A program made the position numbers and the translations under genes. The notes beneath the pieces are model-generated. The model was not told the origin of the DNA. It searched no databases and saw nothing but the letters and a program-made list of their open reading frames with translations. From Patescibacteria group bacterium (GTDB lineage Bacteria; Patescibacteriota; Minisyncoccia; JACQLN01), in contig JBBTRR010000006.1 in the NCBI GenBank assembly GCA_038065095.1, positions 20,713 to 84,712 on the forward strand: 64,000 bases of DNA, in the 5' to 3' direction. Below, in pieces: positions 1,969-33,996 of the stretch. Numbering within the stretch: the stretch's first letter is position 1; each line of letters starts with the position of its first letter.

Positions 1969-2712
1969 ATGTCCGAAAAAATAATAAGTGTAAAAAACTT
2001 AGGTTTTGGTTTTGGTAAAAGACAAATTCTAAAAAATGTCACCTTTGATATTACCGAGGGTGATATTTTGGCTATTATTGGCCCGAATGGCGCCGGTAAA
2101 ACAATGTTAGTGCGAAGTATTTTAGGTTTAAATGATAACTACACCGGCGATATTGTTTGGCATAAAAAACCAGAAACAGGTTATGTGCCACAAAAAATAT
2201 CTTTTGAAAAAGGTTTTCCTCTAACAGTTAAAGAATTTTTTTTGTTTGAAACAGGGAGTAATTTAAACTTTTGGTGGCCTAATAAAAAGAAAGAAGAAGA
2301 AATTAAACAAAGATTAGACGACGTAAAAATTGGCCATTTAATAAATGAAAGACTGGGCGATCTTTCCCAAGGCGAAATGCAAAGAATGTTAATTGCCAGA
2401 AGCCTGCTAGAAAACCCAAAACTTATTTTCTTTGATGAACCCGCTGCTGGCATAGATATTAGCACCGAAGAAACTGTTTATAATTTACTTTACGATTTAT
2501 ACAAGAAGCTAAATTTAACAATGGTTATGGTTTCACACGAACTTTCGGTTGTTTATAGGTTTGCCACCAAAGTTATTTGTTTAAACAAAGATTTGGTTTG
2601 CCAAGGCACACCCCAAGAAGTATTAACCCCCGAAGCTTTACAGGAAGTTTTTGGCCATCATGCTTCAGTTTATAAACATGCACATAATTTAGAACATGAT
2701 CATTCTTCCTAA
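1969..2712 (+). CDS. znuC: metal (Zn/Mn-type) ABC transporter ATP-binding protein
   Basis: Walker A GPNGAGKT, signature LSQGEMQRM, Walker B LIFFDEP. ZnuC/MntB-like length. Confidence 0.8.
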   Translation: MSEKIISVKNLGFGFGKRQILKNVTFDITEGDILAIIGPNGAGKTMLVRSILGLNDNYTGDIVWHKKPETGYVPQKISFEKGFPLTVKEFFLFETGSNLNFWWPNKKKEEEIKQRLDDVKIGHLINERLGDLSQGEMQRMLIARSLLENPKLIFFDEPAAGIDISTEETVYNLLYDLYKKLNLTMVMVSHELSVVYRFATKVICLNKDLVCQGTPQEVLTPEALQEVFGHHASVYKHAHNLEHDHSS

Positions 2713-2743
2713 TTTCTAATTACTAATATCTAATTCCTAAACA

Positions 2744-3538
2744 ATGGATTGGCTTGAAATATTAAATAACATTTACCCTATACTAATAAGCTTATCACTT
2801 GGGCTTTCGTTGCCTTTGATAGGTGTTTTTGTTATTTTACGCCGTGAAGCTTTATTACCCGACGCAATTTCTCATATCATACTTTTAGGCATAGCGCTTT
2901 CTATTACTTTCAAAATAAACCCTTTGGTCGGCATATTAGCTTTTGCTGTATTAGCTGGTTTAGCTATTTCCTTGCTAAAAAATAAAGCCAATTTAGCCTT
3001 AGATGCTATAGTAGGAGTTTTTTTTACAACATCTTTAGCCTTAGGTTCGCTTTTAATACCTTCCGAAGAACTTTTAGAAACATTTTTAGGCAATATAGAA
3101 AAACTAACAAGAGGAGATGTTTTATTATCCACTGTACTTGCCCTAATAATAATTATTAGTTTGTTAGTTAAATTTAGAGACTTTGCTTTTGTTTCTTTTG
3201 CGCCAGACTTAGCCAAAGTAGATAAAATAAATGTAAAAAAATACGAAATATTTTTCGTATTACTTCTTTCGCTGGGCGTGGCTATTGGCATTAAACTAAT
3301 GGGTACACTTTTGGTTAGTGCTTTAATAATTGTTCCCGCCGCTACCGCCAAAATATTTAGTTTTCAAATTCGCCCTATGACGGGCTGGAGTATGATCTTT
3401 GGTTTACTTTCTGTTTTAGTGGGACTAGGCACTACCACAACCTTAAATTCTCCTCCGGGGCCAACCATAATTTTGATAAGTGCCAGTATCTTCTTTTTAA
3501 CTTTTGTAATGCATTCTATATTTAGAAAGCGTAATTGA
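2744..3538 (+). CDS. znuB: metal ABC transporter permease (ZnuB/ABC-3 family)
   Basis: About 8 TM helices, ABC-3 permease-like. Adjacent to the ATPase. No substrate-binding protein adjacent. Confidence 0.7.
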   Translation: MDWLEILNNIYPILISLSLGLSLPLIGVFVILRREALLPDAISHIILLGIALSITFKINPLVGILAFAVLAGLAISLLKNKANLALDAIVGVFFTTSLALGSLLIPSEELLETFLGNIEKLTRGDVLLSTVLALIIIISLLVKFRDFAFVSFAPDLAKVDKINVKKYEIFFVLLLSLGVAIGIKLMGTLLVSALIIVPAATAKIFSFQIRPMTGWSMIFGLLSVLVGLGTTTTLNSPPGPTIILISASIFFLTFVMHSIFRKRN

Positions 3539-3554
3539 TTTATCTTAAAAGGCA

Positions 3555-3884
3555 GTGAAATTATCTAACGAATTTCACAAGAATGTAAAAGAGATTATCC
3601 CATCAAAAGACGGTAGGTTTTTGGTTAAAATTTGCGGAGATTCTATGATTGATGCCAATATAAACAATGGAGATACCGTACTTGTTGAAGAATTAAAAGA
3701 GTTTATTTCTGGTGATATAGTGCTGGCTTATAACGGCAAAAATCCCGTTATTGGAAAATTTATGTCTACAGATGAACCGCCTTATGTATATTTAAAACCA
3801 GAAAATTCAAATTATTCAAATATTTTATTTACTGATAGTATAAGAATGAAGGGAAAAGTTGTTTCGATTATTAAAAAACAATAA
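3555..3884 (+). CDS. UmuD'-like S24 peptidase (LexA C-terminal domain only; no HTH, no cleavable arm)
   Basis: GDSM Ser-nucleophile motif and downstream GK (Lys general base). Aligns with the UmuD' core ([21 protein letters not shown]). Only 109 aa. Confidence 0.65.
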   Translation: MKLSNEFHKNVKEIIPSKDGRFLVKICGDSMIDANINNGDTVLVEELKEFISGDIVLAYNGKNPVIGKFMSTDEPPYVYLKPENSNYSNILFTDSIRMKGKVVSIIKKQ

Positions 3885-5478
3885 AATAGCTGGGATGCAA
3901 CAAGAAAAACTACTAACGATTAAAGAAGCGAGCCAGTGGGCAACTAATCTTTTAAAACGGGATGTTAGTGAATCTAATATCTCGTATTTAGTGCAGTATG
4001 GGAAGGTTAAAAAACATAACGGTGGTAGTTCTGTTTTTATTGATATAGATGATTTAAAAAAATATTATGATTCATACCAAGGTAAAAGAGAAACAGACTG
4101 GAAAATAAAACTGGGTAATGATTTAAATTGGGCATTATCCTTTGATAATCTTCGGGAAATAGACACAACAAAACATGTCCACCGCCTACACCCTTATAAA
4201 GGAAAATTTATTCCTCAACTAGTTCAATATTTTGTTGATGATCATACTGATAATTTTAAAAAAGAAGTTTATTTTAAGACTGGTAATGTTATTTTAGATC
4301 CATTTTCTGGTTCAGGTACAACTTTAGTCCAAGCACAAGAAATGGGTATACACTCTATAGGAATTGATGTATCAAATTTTAATTGTATAATGGCAGAAGT
4401 AAAGCTTCTTAATTACGATCTAATAAAACTAGAAGAAGAAATAAAAAAAATAAAACAGACAATACAAAATTACGAAGTAGATAACAAAATTATGATTTTT
4501 GAAAATGAGTTATCAGCCAAAATAACTAGCTTTAATACTAAATATTTTCCAAGTCCCCAATTTAAATACGATCTTCAGCAAAAACATATTAATGAGAATA
4601 AATATGCAATAGAAAAAGAAAGTGAATTTCTAAAGATTTATAATGGTTTAATTAAGAAATACAATATTGAATTAAACAATTTTTCTGCCAAAAGCTTTTT
4701 AGATAAATGGTATATAGGAAATATCAGAAAAGAAATCAGGTTTGCTTTTGAGCAAATCAAAAAAATAAAAGATAGAAAAAATAAAAAAATAATTGCAATA
4801 GTTTTAAGCCGTACTATTAGATCGTGCCGCGCCACAACACATTCAGATTTAGCCACTCTAAAAGAGCCGCAGATAACAACATACTATTGCTGGAAACATA
4901 AGAAAATTTGCAAACCGCTTTTCTCAATAAAAGATTGGTTTGACCGTTACGCCACCGATACAGTTTATAGGCTTAAAATATTTACAAAACTAAAAACTAA
5001 CTCCCATTTTACAGTCATACCCGCAGACTCTCGTACAGTTGATATTTTTAAAGAAATAGAAAAAAGGAATAAGGAATTTTACAAAATTCTAAAAAAACAG
5101 AAAATAAGTGGCATTTTTACTTCTCCGCCATATGTTGGACAAATTGATTACCACGAACAACATGCTTACGCCTACGATTTATTTGGATTTAAAAGAAATG
5201 ATGATATGGAAATAGGACCTCTTTATAAAGGGCAAGGTAAAGAGGCTAAAGAATCTTATATAGACGGAATTTCAAAAGTCTTGCTAAACTCTAAGAGGTT
5301 TTTAGCTGATGGTTTTAATATTTTTTTAGTTGCAAATGATAAATATAACCTGTATCCTACAATTGCCGAAAGAGCGGGAATGAAGATTGTAAACCAATAC
5401 AAGCGACCTGTGCTAAATAGAACCGAGCGAGATAAATCACCTTATTCAGAAATCATATTTCACTTAAAAAATATATAA
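3859..5478 (+). CDS. DNA amino-methyltransferase (N4-C or N6-A), motif I precedes motif IV
   Basis: HPYKGKFIPQL, then LDPFSGSGTT (motif I), then a roughly 270-aa TRD-like spacer, then SPPY (motif IV). N-terminal HTH-like LLTIKEASQWA. Overlaps the S24 gene by 26 nt; alternative start at 3895. Confidence 0.8.
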   Translation: MFRLLKNNKIAGMQQEKLLTIKEASQWATNLLKRDVSESNISYLVQYGKVKKHNGGSSVFIDIDDLKKYYDSYQGKRETDWKIKLGNDLNWALSFDNLREIDTTKHVHRLHPYKGKFIPQLVQYFVDDHTDNFKKEVYFKTGNVILDPFSGSGTTLVQAQEMGIHSIGIDVSNFNCIMAEVKLLNYDLIKLEEEIKKIKQTIQNYEVDNKIMIFENELSAKITSFNTKYFPSPQFKYDLQQKHINENKYAIEKESEFLKIYNGLIKKYNIELNNFSAKSFLDKWYIGNIRKEIRFAFEQIKKIKDRKNKKIIAIVLSRTIRSCRATTHSDLATLKEPQITTYYCWKHKKICKPLFSIKDWFDRYATDTVYRLKIFTKLKTNSHFTVIPADSRTVDIFKEIEKRNKEFYKILKKQKISGIFTSPPYVGQIDYHEQHAYAYDLFGFKRNDDMEIGPLYKGQGKEAKESYIDGISKVLLNSKRFLADGFNIFLVANDKYNLYPTIAERAGMKIVNQYKRPVLNRTERDKSPYSEIIFHLKNI

Positions 5479-5479
5479 T

Positions 5480-6259
5480 ATGGCTTTATCAAACACACAA
5501 AAAAGCAAAATTTCGGCATTATTAGAAAGAAAAATTGAAGATAAACTTCGTCGTTATACCCGCGAAACTTCTTCAATGCCATTTTTAGCTCGTCTTATTC
5601 AAGATAGCGAGAAAGTTGCAGCATATTCTTTCATACATTCAGTGGCAACCACACTCGGTATGTCAATCTACGAACATATCTCGGTTATTCTCGCTGAAGA
5701 AACAGCAACAGAATGTTTTAGAAATTATGATGTTGGCGGTGTTATTTCGCGTGAGCAAAAATCAGTTATCGATGATATAGTCAGAAAACTTCGCAATGGT
5801 GAAAGAGAAGTTAATAACACACAAGAAATAAAATTAGTACTTAATGCTTCTGCTAAAGATGGAAAGGCACAAAAAGAAGGTAAAATCGCTGATTTTTATA
5901 TGAAGCGAGACGGAAGAGAATACTACTTTGAGATTAAGACAGTAAAACCCAATATAGATGTTTTTACAAAATCAAAAACAAAACTTTTGGAATGGGTAGC
6001 GCGCCGCCGAAGTCCAATCAAAGTTTTCCTCGCTTTTCCATATAATCCATACCATCCACAACCATACGAGCGATTTACAGAACAAGGTGTTTTGGATAGG
6101 GGAAAAGAATTTTTAATCGGCAAAGAATACTGGGATTTTCTTGGTGGCGAGAATACTTTTGAAGAATTGCTATCACTTTTTGATAATATTGGTAAAAAAT
6201 TCAAAGAAAAAATAAAAAATAAAATTCAAGAAGTGGCGCAAAATAGAATGTCCAGTTAA
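5480..6259 (+). CDS. putative type II restriction endonuclease (PD-(D/E)xK)
   Basis: Starts 1 nt after the MTase stop. ADFYM...(12 aa)...FEIKTVKP fits D-x(n)-E-x-K. No other domain evident. Confidence 0.55.
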   Translation: MALSNTQKSKISALLERKIEDKLRRYTRETSSMPFLARLIQDSEKVAAYSFIHSVATTLGMSIYEHISVILAEETATECFRNYDVGGVISREQKSVIDDIVRKLRNGEREVNNTQEIKLVLNASAKDGKAQKEGKIADFYMKRDGREYYFEIKTVKPNIDVFTKSKTKLLEWVARRRSPIKVFLAFPYNPYHPQPYERFTEQGVLDRGKEFLIGKEYWDFLGGENTFEELLSLFDNIGKKFKEKIKNKIQEVAQNRMSS

Positions 6260-6282
6260 TATCTTTATTTAAGAAAAAATTT

Positions 6283-6594
6283 ATGGAAATAGAATCAAAA
6301 CAACAAATTTTTGAACGACGGAAAGAAATCGAACAGGAACTCGTGAATATGCTTAAAGAAACTAAGAATGATTTTAATTTAGAATATATCAAGGATATCA
6401 TTTATAACGAAGATGATGGTGATGATTTAATGAAAGTTCTTGCTGTTTTTGACCAGGGACAAGATACTGATGAACTGAACAATATCCTTGAATTAGTAAA
6501 CGATGCCTGGAATTACTTTCCCCATAAAATCATAAACGGTCTTTCCCCAGCCGAAAAATTACTAGAATATCAAAAGAGTGAAAAACTATCCTAG
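6283..6594 (+). CDS. small acidic hypothetical protein
   Basis: 103 aa, D/E-rich (NEDDGDDLMKV). Immediately downstream of the REase. Confidence 0.4.
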   Translation: MEIESKQQIFERRKEIEQELVNMLKETKNDFNLEYIKDIIYNEDDGDDLMKVLAVFDQGQDTDELNNILELVNDAWNYFPHKIINGLSPAEKLLEYQKSEKLS

Positions 6595-7536
6595 TTTTTG
6601 TCCCACAATTTCTTTGTGACCATTTAAAAAATCTTGGGCATTTAGTATTTTTGAACCTTCGGGTTGAACTCTAATTAATTTTATTGCGCCATCGTTACAG
6701 GCGATATAGAGATTTTTAGATTCGTCTGTAAAAACTTCGCCTGACAACTTTTGTCCAACCTCGGAGGTTTGACACTTCTCCAATTCAATTAATTTGAGGC
6801 GGATGTTTTGGCCCGACTTGTTTTTGAAAAAAGTATATACACTTGGCCAATTTATGTAAGCTCGCCATAAATTATAAACTTCTTCAGCCGACATTTTTTG
6901 GTAATCAACCAAGCCATCTTCTTTTTTTATTAACTTGGTAAAAGTAGCTTCAGTGTGGTTTTGTTCTTGTGGTTTAATTTCGCCCGAAACATATTTGGGC
7001 AAATCACGAATTAGCATAGAAGCCCCTATTTGAGCTAATTGAAATTCTAAAGTTAAATAGTTCTCGCTTTGATCAATTAAAAAAACCTCTTGTGAAATTA
7101 CAGGACCATGATCCATCTTTTCGTCTATTACCATAAGCGATACACCTGTTTCGGTTAAACCCTGTGCTAAAGCATTTTGAATAGGCGATGGGCCACGTAA
7201 GCGCGGTAAAAGCGAAGGATGAATATTTATAGTTTTAAACTTTGGAATCTCAAGTACTTCTAGGGGAAGTAACTGGCCATAAGAAATCACTATCATAACG
7301 TCGGGATTTATATTTTTGATTTCACTGCTAATATCTTCAATAGAGATTGGTGTAGTCAAATTTAAATTTAATTCTTTAGCTAATTTAGAAACAGGGGAAT
7401 CTATTAATTGATTTTTGCGACCAGCAGGTTTAGCAGGTTCCGAAATAACCAAAGAAATATCCCAGTCCGTTTGAGATGTTATAGCTTTTAATATAGGAAC
7501 CGCAAATTCGCTGGTACCAGCAAATATTATCTTCAT
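6586..7536 (-). CDS. fmt: methionyl-tRNA formyltransferase
   Basis: MKIIFAGTSEFAVPIL N-terminus and formyl-transferase core with C-terminal domain. 316 aa. Confidence 0.9.
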   Translation of the reverse strand: MKIIFAGTSEFAVPILKAITSQTDWDISLVISEPAKPAGRKNQLIDSPVSKLAKELNLNLTTPISIEDISSEIKNINPDVMIVISYGQLLPLEVLEIPKFKTINIHPSLLPRLRGPSPIQNALAQGLTETGVSLMVIDEKMDHGPVISQEVFLIDQSENYLTLEFQLAQIGASMLIRDLPKYVSGEIKPQEQNHTEATFTKLIKKEDGLVDYQKMSAEEVYNLWRAYINWPSVYTFFKNKSGQNIRLKLIELEKCQTSEVGQKLSGEVFTDESKNLYIACNDGAIKLIRVQPEGSKILNAQDFLNGHKEIVGQKLG

Positions 7537-30306: not shown

Positions 30307-31592
30307 GTTTTTCTTTTAAAAGATTTGGGATATTCTTTATTTTTTTGGCGTTGTTTTTTGCACCAACTTTTGCTTATGCCGATCAATTAGAAAATTTGAA
30401 AATTGAAAGAGAGGGTTTACAAAATAATATTTCCGAATTAGAAGCAAAAATAACCGAATATCAAAAAAATTTAGATTCTAAAAGGGGAGAGATAACTTCT
30501 TTAAAAAATGAAATTTCGGGTATAAATACTCAAATAAACAAACTTAATTTAGATATTAAAAAAACCGAAAGCCAAATCAGTTTAACGCGTATAGATATTC
30601 GAGAAACTCAAACCAATATTCAAGAAACAGAACTAAGTATAGAAGAAAAACAAGAAGTGCTTGGAAGCATACTAAGGGAACTTCGCAAATTTGATGACGA
30701 AAGCCTATTAGAAAGAGCTTTAAAATATAAAACACTAACGGAGGCTGTAAAACAAACTGAACAATTAGATTCTTTGCAAAATAAAATGAACGATGTGCTT
30801 AAAGACACTAGAAAACTAAAAAATAATCTAGAAAACAAAGAAGTGGATTTAAAAGAAAATAAAAAAGAATTAGAAAATAAAACCGCTCAACTTTCTGTTC
30901 AAAAATCGGCTCAACAAGAACAAAAAACAAGAAAGGACACCGTACTTAAAGTAACTAAGGGCCAAGAACAAATATACCAAACACTACTAAACCAAGTAGA
31001 ACAACAGCAAGCCGATCTTTTGTCGCGTTTAGCAAAAATTGAAAACGATATTTTAATTCAAAAAAACTTTGTCGGTTATTTTCAGGCAGGCACTATTCCT
31101 AAACCAGGAACTAAAATCTTTGCTTGGCCCGAAGATAATGCTCGAGTTACCCAAAACTATGGTATGACCAAATACGCTAAACGTGGAGCTTATGGTGGCC
31201 AAGGCCACAACGGTATAGATATTTCTGCAGGCTTAGCCAGCCCTATAAAAGCTGCGGCCGGTGGCAAAATTGTCGCCAAAGGTTTAGAATCTTGCCAAAA
31301 CTATATTCGCCCATCTTGTAATAGTTATTGGGGCAACTGGGTTGCAATTCAACACCCTGGAGGCTTAGTAACTTTGTATGCACATATGTCTAAAATCTCT
31401 ACAAAATCTGTTAACGATGAGGTTCAAACTGGCGATGTTATTGGCTACGAAGGTGCTAGCGGTAATGTTACTGGCCCTCATTTACACTTTTCTGTTTACA
31501 CAGAATTCTTTACTTATAATGATCCAAAAACAGGGGACTTACGAATAAGTTATGGCTATCTAAAAACTTTAAACCCATTGGATTATCTATAA
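30303..31592 (+). CDS. M23 peptidase with N-terminal coiled coil (EnvC-like)
   Basis: Signal peptide and long coiled coil. C-terminal HNGIDISA ... GPHLHFSV (HxxxD, HxH). Confidence 0.85.
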   Translation: MSFSFKRFGIFFIFLALFFAPTFAYADQLENLKIEREGLQNNISELEAKITEYQKNLDSKRGEITSLKNEISGINTQINKLNLDIKKTESQISLTRIDIRETQTNIQETELSIEEKQEVLGSILRELRKFDDESLLERALKYKTLTEAVKQTEQLDSLQNKMNDVLKDTRKLKNNLENKEVDLKENKKELENKTAQLSVQKSAQQEQKTRKDTVLKVTKGQEQIYQTLLNQVEQQQADLLSRLAKIENDILIQKNFVGYFQAGTIPKPGTKIFAWPEDNARVTQNYGMTKYAKRGAYGGQGHNGIDISAGLASPIKAAAGGKIVAKGLESCQNYIRPSCNSYWGNWVAIQHPGGLVTLYAHMSKISTKSVNDEVQTGDVIGYEGASGNVTGPHLHFSVYTEFFTYNDPKTGDLRISYGYLKTLNPLDYL

Positions 31593-31856
31593 ATATAAAA
31601 AGTAAATATTTTGCGATATACTACACCAAAAGAAAGGGGGAGATAAAAAAATCATTATTCCGAACAGCATCCCGCCAAAGGCGGGCAGGTATGGAGTTTG
31701 CCTGCCGTAGGCAGGAAGACCACTTATATAAATAAAGAGGCTCCATACCCGCTTCGCCAGAGCTTTAGCGAGGCGAGTCGTCTGTGAGGAATAATGTTTT
31801 TTTGCTATAGATTAGTGTCGCATAAGCTACATTGTGCGACAGTTAGTTATCCACAT

Positions 31857-32312
31857 TCACTCTAAGCCCGGGCAATTACCCGCAGGCCTAAACCCAGAAT
31901 TTTTAGCTTCTAATATAGATGCAAAATATATTTTATTTTCTTCTTTCATCTTTAGCGCGCCGGCACAATTTTCAAAGTGATAAATTTTACTTCCTTTATT
32001 CCCTACAATTTTTTGTGTGGGTAATACCATAGCCGCAACATCAGGGTCAGTCCCCTCTATTGTAGGTGGGGAGGGGCTAAATTCTTTAGTATTGATAGTT
32101 TTAACAACAGCTTTATCTTTAACAGAATTATCTGTAACAATTTTATTTAAATCAGCAGTATTTAAAAGCGTGCTTTTTATATTAAGCCCCACAGTTTTGT
32201 TTTCTGCGCTTAAACGACCCAAACCAAAACTAATAAGCCCAACCAACATAATAACTGTAATTAAAAATATTTCGTTCTGGTATAATTTTAATTTTTCAAT
32301 AATAGACTTCAT
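31857..32312 (-). CDS. membrane-anchored protein with C-terminal Ada-like zinc-binding domain
   Basis: N-terminal TM. C-terminus KIYHFENCAG...KIYFASILEAKNSGFRPAGNCP resembles Ada_Zn_binding FYYG..CRPSC...FFxSxxEAxxAGFRPCKRC. Confidence 0.55.
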   Translation of the reverse strand: MKSIIEKLKLYQNEIFLITVIMLVGLISFGLGRLSAENKTVGLNIKSTLLNTADLNKIVTDNSVKDKAVVKTINTKEFSPSPPTIEGTDPDVAAMVLPTQKIVGNKGSKIYHFENCAGALKMKEENKIYFASILEAKNSGFRPAGNCPGLE

Positions 32313-32346
32313 AATTCTATATAGAAAATTTATGGTTCGAAATAGC

Positions 32347-33996
32347 TCACCACAAGTAAATTTTAAAAATATCTATACCTTTATTGTTTTTTATAATTAT
32401 TGGGCTTATACCTTGTTTTAATAAATCTTTCTCTAAAACGGGCGACGCTGTTAAAGCACCAGACCTTAAAGGTAATTCGACAGTAGGTATTATTAAATAA
32501 TTATTTTTAAAAACATTTTTTTCGGGGAGGGTTAAATAATCCATACTCTTTATAACTGGCCAGCCGTGGTATATCTGGCGCCTATCTAATATCCAAAGTT
32601 GAGCTGTTTCATATATAGATTCATCGTATACTATTAATGCATTATAATTACTATCCCCTTTTTCTTTAGCCTGTTCCACACTCGCAGATTGAAAAGTTTC
32701 TATAAACTTATATCTGGAATCAAAAACATATTTAGGATATTTATTTTTTAATTCTTCGGAAAAGAATTTTTCTAATTCATTATAACCCCAATTATAATTT
32801 TCCTGCCTAACAGGGGAATAAGCCAATACTTCCCTACCCCATGGAAAATTTATTACATGGCTGTTTAACGAATAAAATAATTCAAAAATAATTACTGGAA
32901 CTAAAATATATTTATAATTAAATTTTGATATAAAATTACCTGCCGTTAAAACCATAGTCGGCGTTAACATAGTTAAGAACCGACGAGTTGGGCCAATTAA
33001 CAAAAACAACGAAACTTGAAACACTAACCAAATAAATAAAAACCTATTTTTAGACTTAATCCAAAAAATACTTATGGCAAATAACATAAGCAAGACATAA
33101 GAATTTGATTTTACTAAATTAGGTATAAAATCTTTAACTCTATCATCTAGCGAACCAATTTCTTCCTTGCCAGGAGCCTCCAGCCACTCTTTAGGGTGTT
33201 GATTAAGTATATAAGAAAGCTGAAAATCAAAATGTCCTACATTTTTATAAAGACCAATATTATAAATGATTACCGGGCTAAATATTATTAACCCCACTAA
33301 CACGCCCAGCCATAAATTTATATCCTTAAAATAACTTCGTTTATAGATTAAAAGATAAGTGAATATTATTGGCACTACTATAAAAGTTGTGTATTTGGTT
33401 AACCCGCCCAAACCGACAGCCATGCCCATTAAAATTAAGTATCGCGAATTTTCTAAAGACTTTAAAAATAAAAATAATGTTAAAAGTATAAAAAAGATTA
33501 CGTAAGATTCCTGTAAACCAACTCGAGAAATAAATACGTTGTTAACTGTAACCGCCATCAAAAAAGCTGATATTAACCCAGCTTTTTCATAGAAAAGCCT
33601 TCGACCTATTAAATAGATCAACCAGACTGATAAAACTCCCAATAATGTCGAAGGAAATCTAAAAGCAAAGTTATTTTCACCAAATAATTTTATAAATATA
33701 TGTTGAATCCAAAACACTAAAGGTGGATGATCGTGCCAAGATAATCTCGCCCAAAATGGTACTCTAGTCGAGCCGAACCCCTCGACTCCGCTCGGGGCAA
33801 GCCACTCCCAAGGCGTTGACTGCTTATTGGCTACATCAAAATCCATTGGGCCGACAGCACGAAAAGCATAAAGCATCTCGTCGCCCAGCGGATCACCGCT
33901 AGATAAGTTAATAAAGCGCAACAAAGCTGCTAGAACCAAAATAAAAACTAAAATCTTTTTATTCTTAACCATAGAACTTTTATAAAACTCTCCCAA
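32347..33996 (-). CDS. GT-C family glycosyltransferase (PMT_2/ArnT-like)
   Basis: About 11 TM helices. DE motif in the first loop (GDPLGDEMLYAFRA). C-terminal soluble domain. Start possibly at 33972. Confidence 0.75.
   Translation of the reverse strand: MGEFYKSSMVKNKKILVFILVLAALLRFINLSSGDPLGDEMLYAFRAVGPMDFDVANKQSTPWEWLAPSGVEGFGSTRVPFWARLSWHDHPPLVFWIQHIFIKLFGENNFAFRFPSTLLGVLSVWLIYLIGRRLFYEKAGLISAFLMAVTVNNVFISRVGLQESYVIFFILLTLFLFLKSLENSRYLILMGMAVGLGGLTKYTTFIVVPIIFTYLLIYKRSYFKDINLWLGVLVGLIIFSPVIIYNIGLYKNVGHFDFQLSYILNQHPKEWLEAPGKEEIGSLDDRVKDFIPNLVKSNSYVLLMLFAISIFWIKSKNRFLFIWLVFQVSLFLLIGPTRRFLTMLTPTMVLTAGNFISKFNYKYILVPVIIFELFYSLNSHVINFPWGREVLAYSPVRQENYNWGYNELEKFFSEELKNKYPKYVFDSRYKFIETFQSASVEQAKEKGDSNYNALIVYDESIYETAQLWILDRRQIYHGWPVIKSMDYLTLPEKNVFKNNYLIIPTVELPLRSGALTASPVLEKDLLKQGISPIIIKNNKGIDIFKIYLW

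Follow-up and report, generated by a model that had tools for sequence, protein, structure and literature searches.

LexA (MEROPS S24) combines a winged helix-turn-helix (wHTH), an Ala-Gly cleavage loop (Pfam S24 positions 1-29) and a catalytic Lys, and UmuD', which keeps Ser60 and Lys97, works with UmuC and is made by proteolysis. Among restriction-modification (R-M) systems, a small gene lies immediately upstream of the R-M genes in those with a C protein (C.PvuII; PMC2175313), and the methyltransferases (MTases) M.SsoII (PMC3978073) and M.Ecl18kI (PMC2760811) bear a DNA-binding domain at the N-terminus by which they control the R-M operon that encodes them. Here we analysed a locus within a 64-kb stretch of DNA from a Patescibacteria group bacterium (contig JBBTRR010000006.1; the whole stretch is referred to as the window), in which an S24-peptidase-like gene (S24'), an amino-MTase gene, a restriction endonuclease (REase) gene and a fourth open reading frame (ORF), P4, follow one another. 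The initial annotation had placed these four ORFs on the + strand, where we recovered them at identical coordinates, and had interpreted S24' as an active UmuD'-like peptidase in the controller position of an R-M operon. Our results indicate that the 3-kb island holding the four genes is probably an ordinary Type II R-M pair together with a remnant of the LexA C-terminal domain (CTD) and an independent P4. The outcome for the window is mainly corrective, namely that the locus combines a mobile Type II R-M cassette of standard make with a truncated, lysine-less LexA fragment.

S24' (3555-3884, + strand; 109 aa, GTG start) matched Pfam Peptidase_S24 (PF00717) with an E-value of 1.4e-15, as had been proposed, and the match covered profile positions 30-116 of 116 only. 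Among the NCBIfam models, lexA scored best (7.6e-16), followed by UmuD (2.3e-13), both below cut-off, and matches to LexA and UmuD structures in the PDB ranged from 3e-8 to 2e-7. An exhaustive phmmer search of 1.8 billion representatives identified a full-length LexA (P0125) that was 52% identical to S24', and the nearest clusters in that search included full-length LexA and without exception retained TIKRF or TVKRF. PADLOC had no model for S24'. Identity to the CTD of the LexA encoded at a comparison locus, L086, was 47-58% (58% by tblastn). When aligned by MAFFT with 10 full-length LexA proteins, S24' matched their CTD only, beginning just past the cleavage loop. Neither the profiles nor the alignment revealed a LexA_DNA_bind wHTH or an Ala-Gly/Cys-Gly cleavage loop in S24', in agreement with the earlier description of a protein without a helix-turn-helix (HTH) or a cleavable arm. 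An in-frame TAA lies 2 codons 5' of the GTG and the znuB stop is only 16 nt from the S24' start, so an N-terminal domain cannot be encoded there. S24' has no recognisable ribosome-binding site, and most genes of this genome likewise lack one. By its domain boundaries and relatives, S24' is evidently a LexA CTD with the 5' half missing. Short S24-only proteins of 104-134 aa, P0124 (L094), P0127 and P0128 (L097), were also found near the LexA clade of S24'; they keep the catalytic Lys and come from very short, low-coverage contigs, representing either real truncations or assembly artefacts.

The Ser/Lys dyad, which had been called intact, is preserved in its first half only. Ser30 (nt 3642-3644), within the GDSM motif, aligns with the nucleophile of LexA (S119) and UmuD (S60). 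The column of the general-base Lys (LexA K156, UmuD K97, Mtb LexA K197) is filled by Gly67 (nt 3753-3755), and Lys68 falls one column further on, opposite a basic residue that is not catalytic (R157/K98). The assignment of this column was the same in a MAFFT alignment with 12 references and in independent HMMER alignments to Mtb LexA (6a2t) and UmuD (1ay9). Two independent sister sequences (P0002 and P0003, ~80% identical) read VIARF across this region, with Ala at the catalytic position, Arg next to it and no Lys. The catalytic Lys is kept, as T(I/V)K(R/K), in 14/14 of the nearest outgroup sequences read. A dyad missing on alignment is the outcome that the initial annotation had itself named as refuting its proposal. 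S24' can neither bind operators nor, with its catalytic Lys replaced, cleave itself, and its cleavage of anything else would be improbable.

The MTase gene (3895-5478, + strand; 527 aa; longest ORF from TTG 3859) encodes a protein that matched Pfam PF01555 (N6_N4_Mtase, 3.6e-13) and, over its full length, the PADLOC model MTase_II PDLC03249 (2.3e-234). Its motif I, DPFSGSG (residue 135, nt 4297-4317), is followed after ~270 aa by motif IV, SPPY (residue 410, nt 5122-5133), which is the order initially reported. The SPPY motif presumably reflects N4-methylcytosine (m4C) methylation. The REase gene (5480-6259, + strand; 259 aa) is separated from the MTase stop by 1 nt, and its assignment to a nuclease family was borne out by a match to Pfam PF09520 (RE_TdeIII, 2e-60) over profile positions 2-242 of 242, and by PADLOC REase_II (1e-19). 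A likely PD-(D/E)xK core lies near ...IADFYMK...YFEIK..., and no solved homologue of the REase was found. In such a pair the amino-MTase would protect the host sites, and the co-transcribed TdeIII-family REase would cut unmethylated incoming DNA.

The intergenic gaps are 10 nt between S24' and the MTase gene, 1 nt between the MTase and REase genes, and 23 nt between the REase gene and P4. An overlap of S24' with the MTase start had been taken as translational coupling. The ATG at 3895 was supported as the MTase start by gene callers, by the N-termini of homologues and by the onset of DNA homology exactly at this position; with S24' ending at TAA 3882-3884, an overlap arises only with the TTG start at 3859. 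The junctions give no specific sign of translational coupling, because most genes of the genome lack a recognisable Shine-Dalgarno sequence.

The MTase has >8000 homologues, the best 120 of which are 75-79% identical and come from many candidate phyla. A genome-collection scan using the MTase provided 80 comparison loci (L008-L087), which span Patescibacteria, Proteobacteria, Atribacterota, Bdellovibrionales, Bacteroidota and archaeal bins. A TdeIII-family gene directly follows the MTase gene in 67/80 loci. DNA homology to the window begins at 3895, the MTase ATG, in >20 loci and stops at 6250-6260, at the REase stop, and 40+ loci share homology limited to 3895 through 6250-6260. These bounds show that the shared unit is M plus R alone. 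The M-R pair is, on this distribution, an ordinary two-gene Type II R-M cassette that appears to spread horizontally. Carriage by phages was not supported, with a relative of the MTase on only 1 of 2.9 million viral contigs. Seventy of the loci had at least 650 nt upstream of the MTase and could be evaluated for their upstream neighbour; an S24 neighbour was missing in 60 of these. A controller role for S24', as first suggested, is not upheld, given that the protein has no DNA-binding domain, lies outside the conserved cassette and precedes a different gene in a sister lineage (L089), and that most cassettes lack an S24 neighbour.

The REase genes of the comparison loci fell into classes by identity to the window REase (83-88%, 61-66%, 40-46% and 26-37%), with MTase identity at 66-80% throughout, and 13/80 loci had no TdeIII-family gene after the MTase. 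This pattern points to exchange or loss of the REase beside a conserved MTase. The upstream neighbours of the cassettes were diverse. Many were highly conserved, same-strand housekeeping genes that end a short distance before the MTase, including pyrG, recA, lepA, groEL, ribonucleotide reductase (RNR) genes, guaA and atpD. Such neighbours are compatible with promoterless hitch-hiking or with homology-facilitated illegitimate recombination.

The HTH-like segment noted at the MTase N-terminus was supported by structure prediction. In an AlphaFold2 (AF2) model built from a 26-sequence alignment, residues 6-61 (nt 3910-4077, + strand) form a winged helix with the order beta-alpha-alpha-beta-beta-alpha and a predicted local distance difference test score (pLDDT) of ~83-88. 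The best Foldseek match was mycobacteriophage Pukovnik Xis (4j2n; TM-score 0.79, root-mean-square deviation 1.1-2.1 A), and further matches included the RdfS excisionase (8dgl), TraN and BldC, with TM-scores of 0.63-0.79 and E-values of ~0.06-0.3 for Xis/RdfS. Foldseek E-values overall were only ~0.06-0.5, as expected for a 55-residue domain. The domain is conserved across MTase homologues, and Pfam returned no HTH match in this N-terminus. This Xis/MerR-like winged helix is the likeliest built-in transcriptional regulator of the cassette and, by analogy with M.SsoII and M.Ecl18kI, may control its transcription.

The four genes lie on an inserted island of ~3.05 kb (3539-6585, + strand). Its left neighbour is znuB (ABC-3 permease; stop 3536-3538, + strand), part of a znuC/znuB-like ABC transporter, and its right neighbour is fmt (stop 6586-6588, - strand), which is convergent with znuB and whose 3' end overlaps the 3' end of P4 by 9 nt. 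A metagenome scan using znuB identified a relative, L091, with znuB abutting fmt (znuB 85%, fmt 74% identity). In this empty site, window 2584-3524 corresponds to L091 1-906 and window 6580-7536 to L091 911-1861, with the L091 junction at 917-920. In another relative, L092, this junction is occupied by an unlike insert (4863-5970), which encodes a 261-aa HTH_XRE protein and a 111-aa toxin-like ORF. The empty site and the alternative insert together identify 3539-6585 as an island, and the convergent znuB|fmt junction is, by this comparison, evidently a variable insertion hotspot. No terminal repeats and no integrase or recombinase were found at the island. Proteins identical to the locus products were present on >20 contigs from Hainich groundwater 0.1-um metagenomes.

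Three further contigs were compared with the island. In L088, znuB, S24' and the MTase gene are colinear with the window in a single high-scoring segment pair (HSP) at 82% identity. In L089, znuB and S24' are followed by an unrelated gene, and homology to the window ends at 3877. L088 and L089 together show S24' to be a resident of this lineage. An apparent REase swap in L007 (ERZ2470813 NODE_270, 0.43x coverage) was rejected: the 42% tblastn identity is a frameshift artefact, and blastn gave 98.8% DNA identity in one HSP. This contig is indel-ridden and its called proteins, including P0001, are frameshift-corrupted, so P0001 is not an independent S24' sequence. The idea that S24' is the decayed resident lexA of the znuB-fmt site was not supported, as no lexA is present there in L091, which is empty, or in L092, which carries the toxin-antitoxin-like insert; closer ancestors could differ. 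S24' would most likely mark the left edge of imported DNA from a donor with defence cargo directly 3' of lexA, with the left breakpoint falling inside lexA.

P4 (6283-6594, + strand; 103 aa) is acidic, as had been noted, with an isoelectric point (pI) of 4.4. AF2 predicted five helices (pLDDT 85), and no Pfam, PADLOC or PDB fold match was obtained. The family is large, with >1000 homologues of ~101 aa that are 67-78% identical. It had been suggested that P4 could be a DNA mimic or anti-restriction factor, an idea that the lack of fold matches neither favours nor disfavours. P4 lies outside the R-M system, because its relatives are absent from all 80 M-R loci and are attached to unrelated operons elsewhere: in L098-L105 they close defence-like operons of unrelated content, starting within a few nt of the ORF before them, such as a ResIII helicase with a PIN_12 nuclease, or HATPase_c_3 with two unknown genes. 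P4 is, as far as gene neighbourhoods reveal, a portable accessory gene that is independent of the R-M cassette. The family is small in protein size, highly conserved and acidic, and travels at the tail of several defence-like operons.

The selection acting on S24' was assessed across three lineages, among which the gene has diverged by ~18% at the DNA level. Frameshifts and stops are absent in all three, and each keeps the GTG start and the length. Nei-Gojobori dN/dS values of 0.17, 0.22 and 0.36 were obtained with the window, L088 and L089 copies, and the synonymous excess was significant (P = 8e-7 to 1.5e-3). S24' is, on these estimates, still under purifying selection. An identical S24' protein was found on 22+ contigs from many samples, the gene was kept beside two different cargos (window/L088 vs L089), and the short form was limited to a single 50%-identity cluster.

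In one alternative, which we judge unlikely, S24' has been domesticated: the dead LexA CTD would either dimerise with host LexA without being cleavable, and so poison or tune it, or bind RecA*, and the state of the SOS response would thereby be linked to the defence cargo. LexA dimerises and contacts RecA* through its CTD, and the conserved start and length, the low dN/dS (0.17-0.36), the 22+ identical copies, the retention beside both cargos and the recurrent linkage of the S24' LexA clade with downstream defence-type genes all favour this role. It is weakened by the absence of a partner LexA from the window, by the confinement of the family to one cluster, and by a selection signal that comes from three sequences only and could partly reflect embedded signals for the downstream genes. 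Less likely still is a functionless pseudogene fragment that has not yet decayed. The loss of two of the three LexA functional modules and of the catalytic Lys, the position at the edge of an inserted island and the lack of a recognisable ribosome-binding site (shared with most genes of the genome) are consistent with decay, but the synonymous excess (P down to 8e-7), the absence of frameshifts and stops in three lineages and the conserved start are unexpected under neutral drift of a dead gene. That S24' is an active, processed UmuD'-like peptidase controlling the coupled MTase, for example by damage-responsive cleavage of the MTase N-terminal domain, is highly improbable: the S24 fold, a Ser30 motif identical to that of UmuD, UmuD'-like length and boundaries, the co-directional array with short gaps, the selected ORF and a detachable wHTH on the MTase would suit it, but the Lys column holds Gly (Ala in the sisters), the nearest relatives are LexA and not UmuD, the overlap with the MTase is absent, the same wHTH-bearing MTase lacks an S24 neighbour in 60/70 evaluable loci, S24' precedes an unrelated gene in L089, and, as the initial annotation had observed, no Y-family polymerase (UmuC/DinB, IMS) is present among the annotated genes within +/-8 kb.

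The interpretation we favour, an ordinary R-M pair with a LexA CTD remnant and an independent P4, also has several observations to its disadvantage. Purifying selection on S24' speaks against a pure relic, and the interpretation lacks a mechanism for it; any remaining role would be non-catalytic, and speculatively the protein could act on full-length LexA or RecA* as a decoy or as a partner that resists cleavage. A host LexA is not in evidence, since no full-length lexA lies in the 64-kb window. Lys68, one residue off the catalytic column, is a conceivable general base in the window's protein, and the sisters have no Lys there. On the sequences from three lineages, S24' may have been imported with M-R, or may have been an earlier island resident whose cargo was later exchanged. 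No operator for the MTase winged helix was found, because the non-coding flanks are not conserved between cassettes, and promoter-like matches were no commoner than in shuffled sequence. Finally, palindrome avoidance did not yield a recognition site: GGNCC (observed/expected ratio, o/e, 0.89) and GANTC (1.21) are not avoided in the window.

Full-length lexA genes were found directly upstream of the M-R cassette, on the same strand, in 10/70 evaluable loci (L013, L022, L028, L029, L043, L059, L067, L079, L080, L086), which belong to unrelated Patescibacteria and to other lineages. Each of the ten proteins, ~200 aa in length, has all the LexA parts, namely winged HTH, cleavage loop and S24 domain; those of L086 and L028 matched LexA_DNA_bind and Peptidase_S24 profile positions 1-116. 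The lexA-MTase gap was 2-64 nt in 7/10 loci and 222-566 nt in 3/10. The ten LexA proteins represent ~7 lineages that are mutually 20-45% identical, whereas the MTases beside them share 66-80% identity and are dispersed across the MTase tree, which indicates repeated independent juxtaposition. Taking lexA as 1 of ~500-1000 genes, the binomial probability of this number was ~1e-10 to 1e-12. Within two clades, L059/L067/L079 and L013/L029, lexA-M(-R) is colinear in a single HSP between non-homologous flanks; inheritance as a unit is restricted to these, and lexA plus M-R was rejected as a general mobile module on the contrast in LexA and MTase identities.

In the clade related to the window, the lexA promoters carry TTGACA, a 12-14-bp GAAC-N4-GTTC-like palindrome and TATAAT, in that order. 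With the palindrome between the -35 and -10 elements, this is the classical autoregulated SOS layout, and LexA would there control a transcript that includes the cassette. Co-transcription, if it occurs, would couple restriction to the SOS response; R-M systems are not listed with a regulatory logic of this kind. In the window itself, SOS boxes were rejected as a signal, as the box pattern of this clade is not enriched (13 occurrences against an expectation of 23) and the only perfect GAAC-N4-GTTC falls within coding sequence. R-M reviews (EcoSal Plus 2025, NAR 2013) make no mention of LexA as an R-M regulator, and no published description of a lexA-M-R linkage was found. The S24 plus R-M arrangement had been put forward as undescribed; an S24-family regulator does recur beside this cassette, as full-length LexA at 10 loci and not in the form found in the window, and we found no description of it. 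We consider it possible, and no more than tentatively, that the cassette docked 3' of a host lexA at least ~7 independent times to give an SOS-coupled R-M system, and that a dead LexA CTD serves as decoy or partner of LexA or RecA* beside exchangeable defence cargo in the window lineage.

The lexA genes of the S24' clade each have another ORF 3-17 nt downstream (L086 1557-1775, L096 922-1164, L107 817-1161, L108 1347-1505). Homology links the L096 ORF with the stub in L086 (52%, E = 1e-15), and the L107 ORF contains a PEF...VECK motif with a sub-threshold HSDR_N_2 match (E = 0.016). A nuclease assignment is not claimed for the L096, L107 and L108 ORFs, for which the evidence was the sub-threshold HSDR_N_2 match.

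Two features of the window as a whole were also recorded. TCGA (o/e 0.41), CCNGG (0.47), GCNGC (0.53), GGCC (0.68) and GATATC (0.26) are strongly avoided across the 64 kb, which suggests pressure from other R-M specificities; TCGA, CCNGG and GCNGC are not assignable to the system described here. The cumulative GC skew climbs to ~31 kb and then falls steadily (31000-33000), a change in strand composition such as replication origins or termini show.

Compared with described systems, the M-R pair corresponds to Type II R-M systems that combine a TdeIII REase (PF09520) with an amino-MTase (PF01555): the M-then-R order, the 1-nt gap, the full-length matches and motifs I and IV are the same, and the cassette recurs in hundreds of genomes. 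Nothing essential distinguishes it from TdeIII-type R-M, to which the window MTase adds an N-terminal winged helix. This domain resembles the arrangement of M.SsoII and M.Ecl18kI in that a DNA-binding fold is predicted at the MTase N-terminus and no separate C protein is present, which makes autoregulation plausible; however, in those systems a C5-MTase bears a classical HTH and the genes diverge, whereas in the window an amino-MTase bears a winged helix of Xis/MerR type and M and R point the same way. The likeness to C-protein systems is limited to the position of a small upstream gene, since Pfam finds no HTH in the gene upstream of the window cassette and a C-box was not identified; only at L010 and L061 does this slot upstream of the MTase hold a small gene of C-protein type with HTH_3. 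S24' shares with LexA the fold family and the GDSM Ser motif, but is without the wHTH, the cleavage loop and the Lys. With UmuD' it shares a similar length (109 vs 115 aa), similar boundaries, the absence of a DNA-binding domain and an identical GDSMID; in contrast, S24' is Lys-less, has its affinity with LexA and appears to have been made by gene truncation. The R-M pair itself is already a known type, and the parts worth following are the linkage of lexA with R-M and the P4 family.

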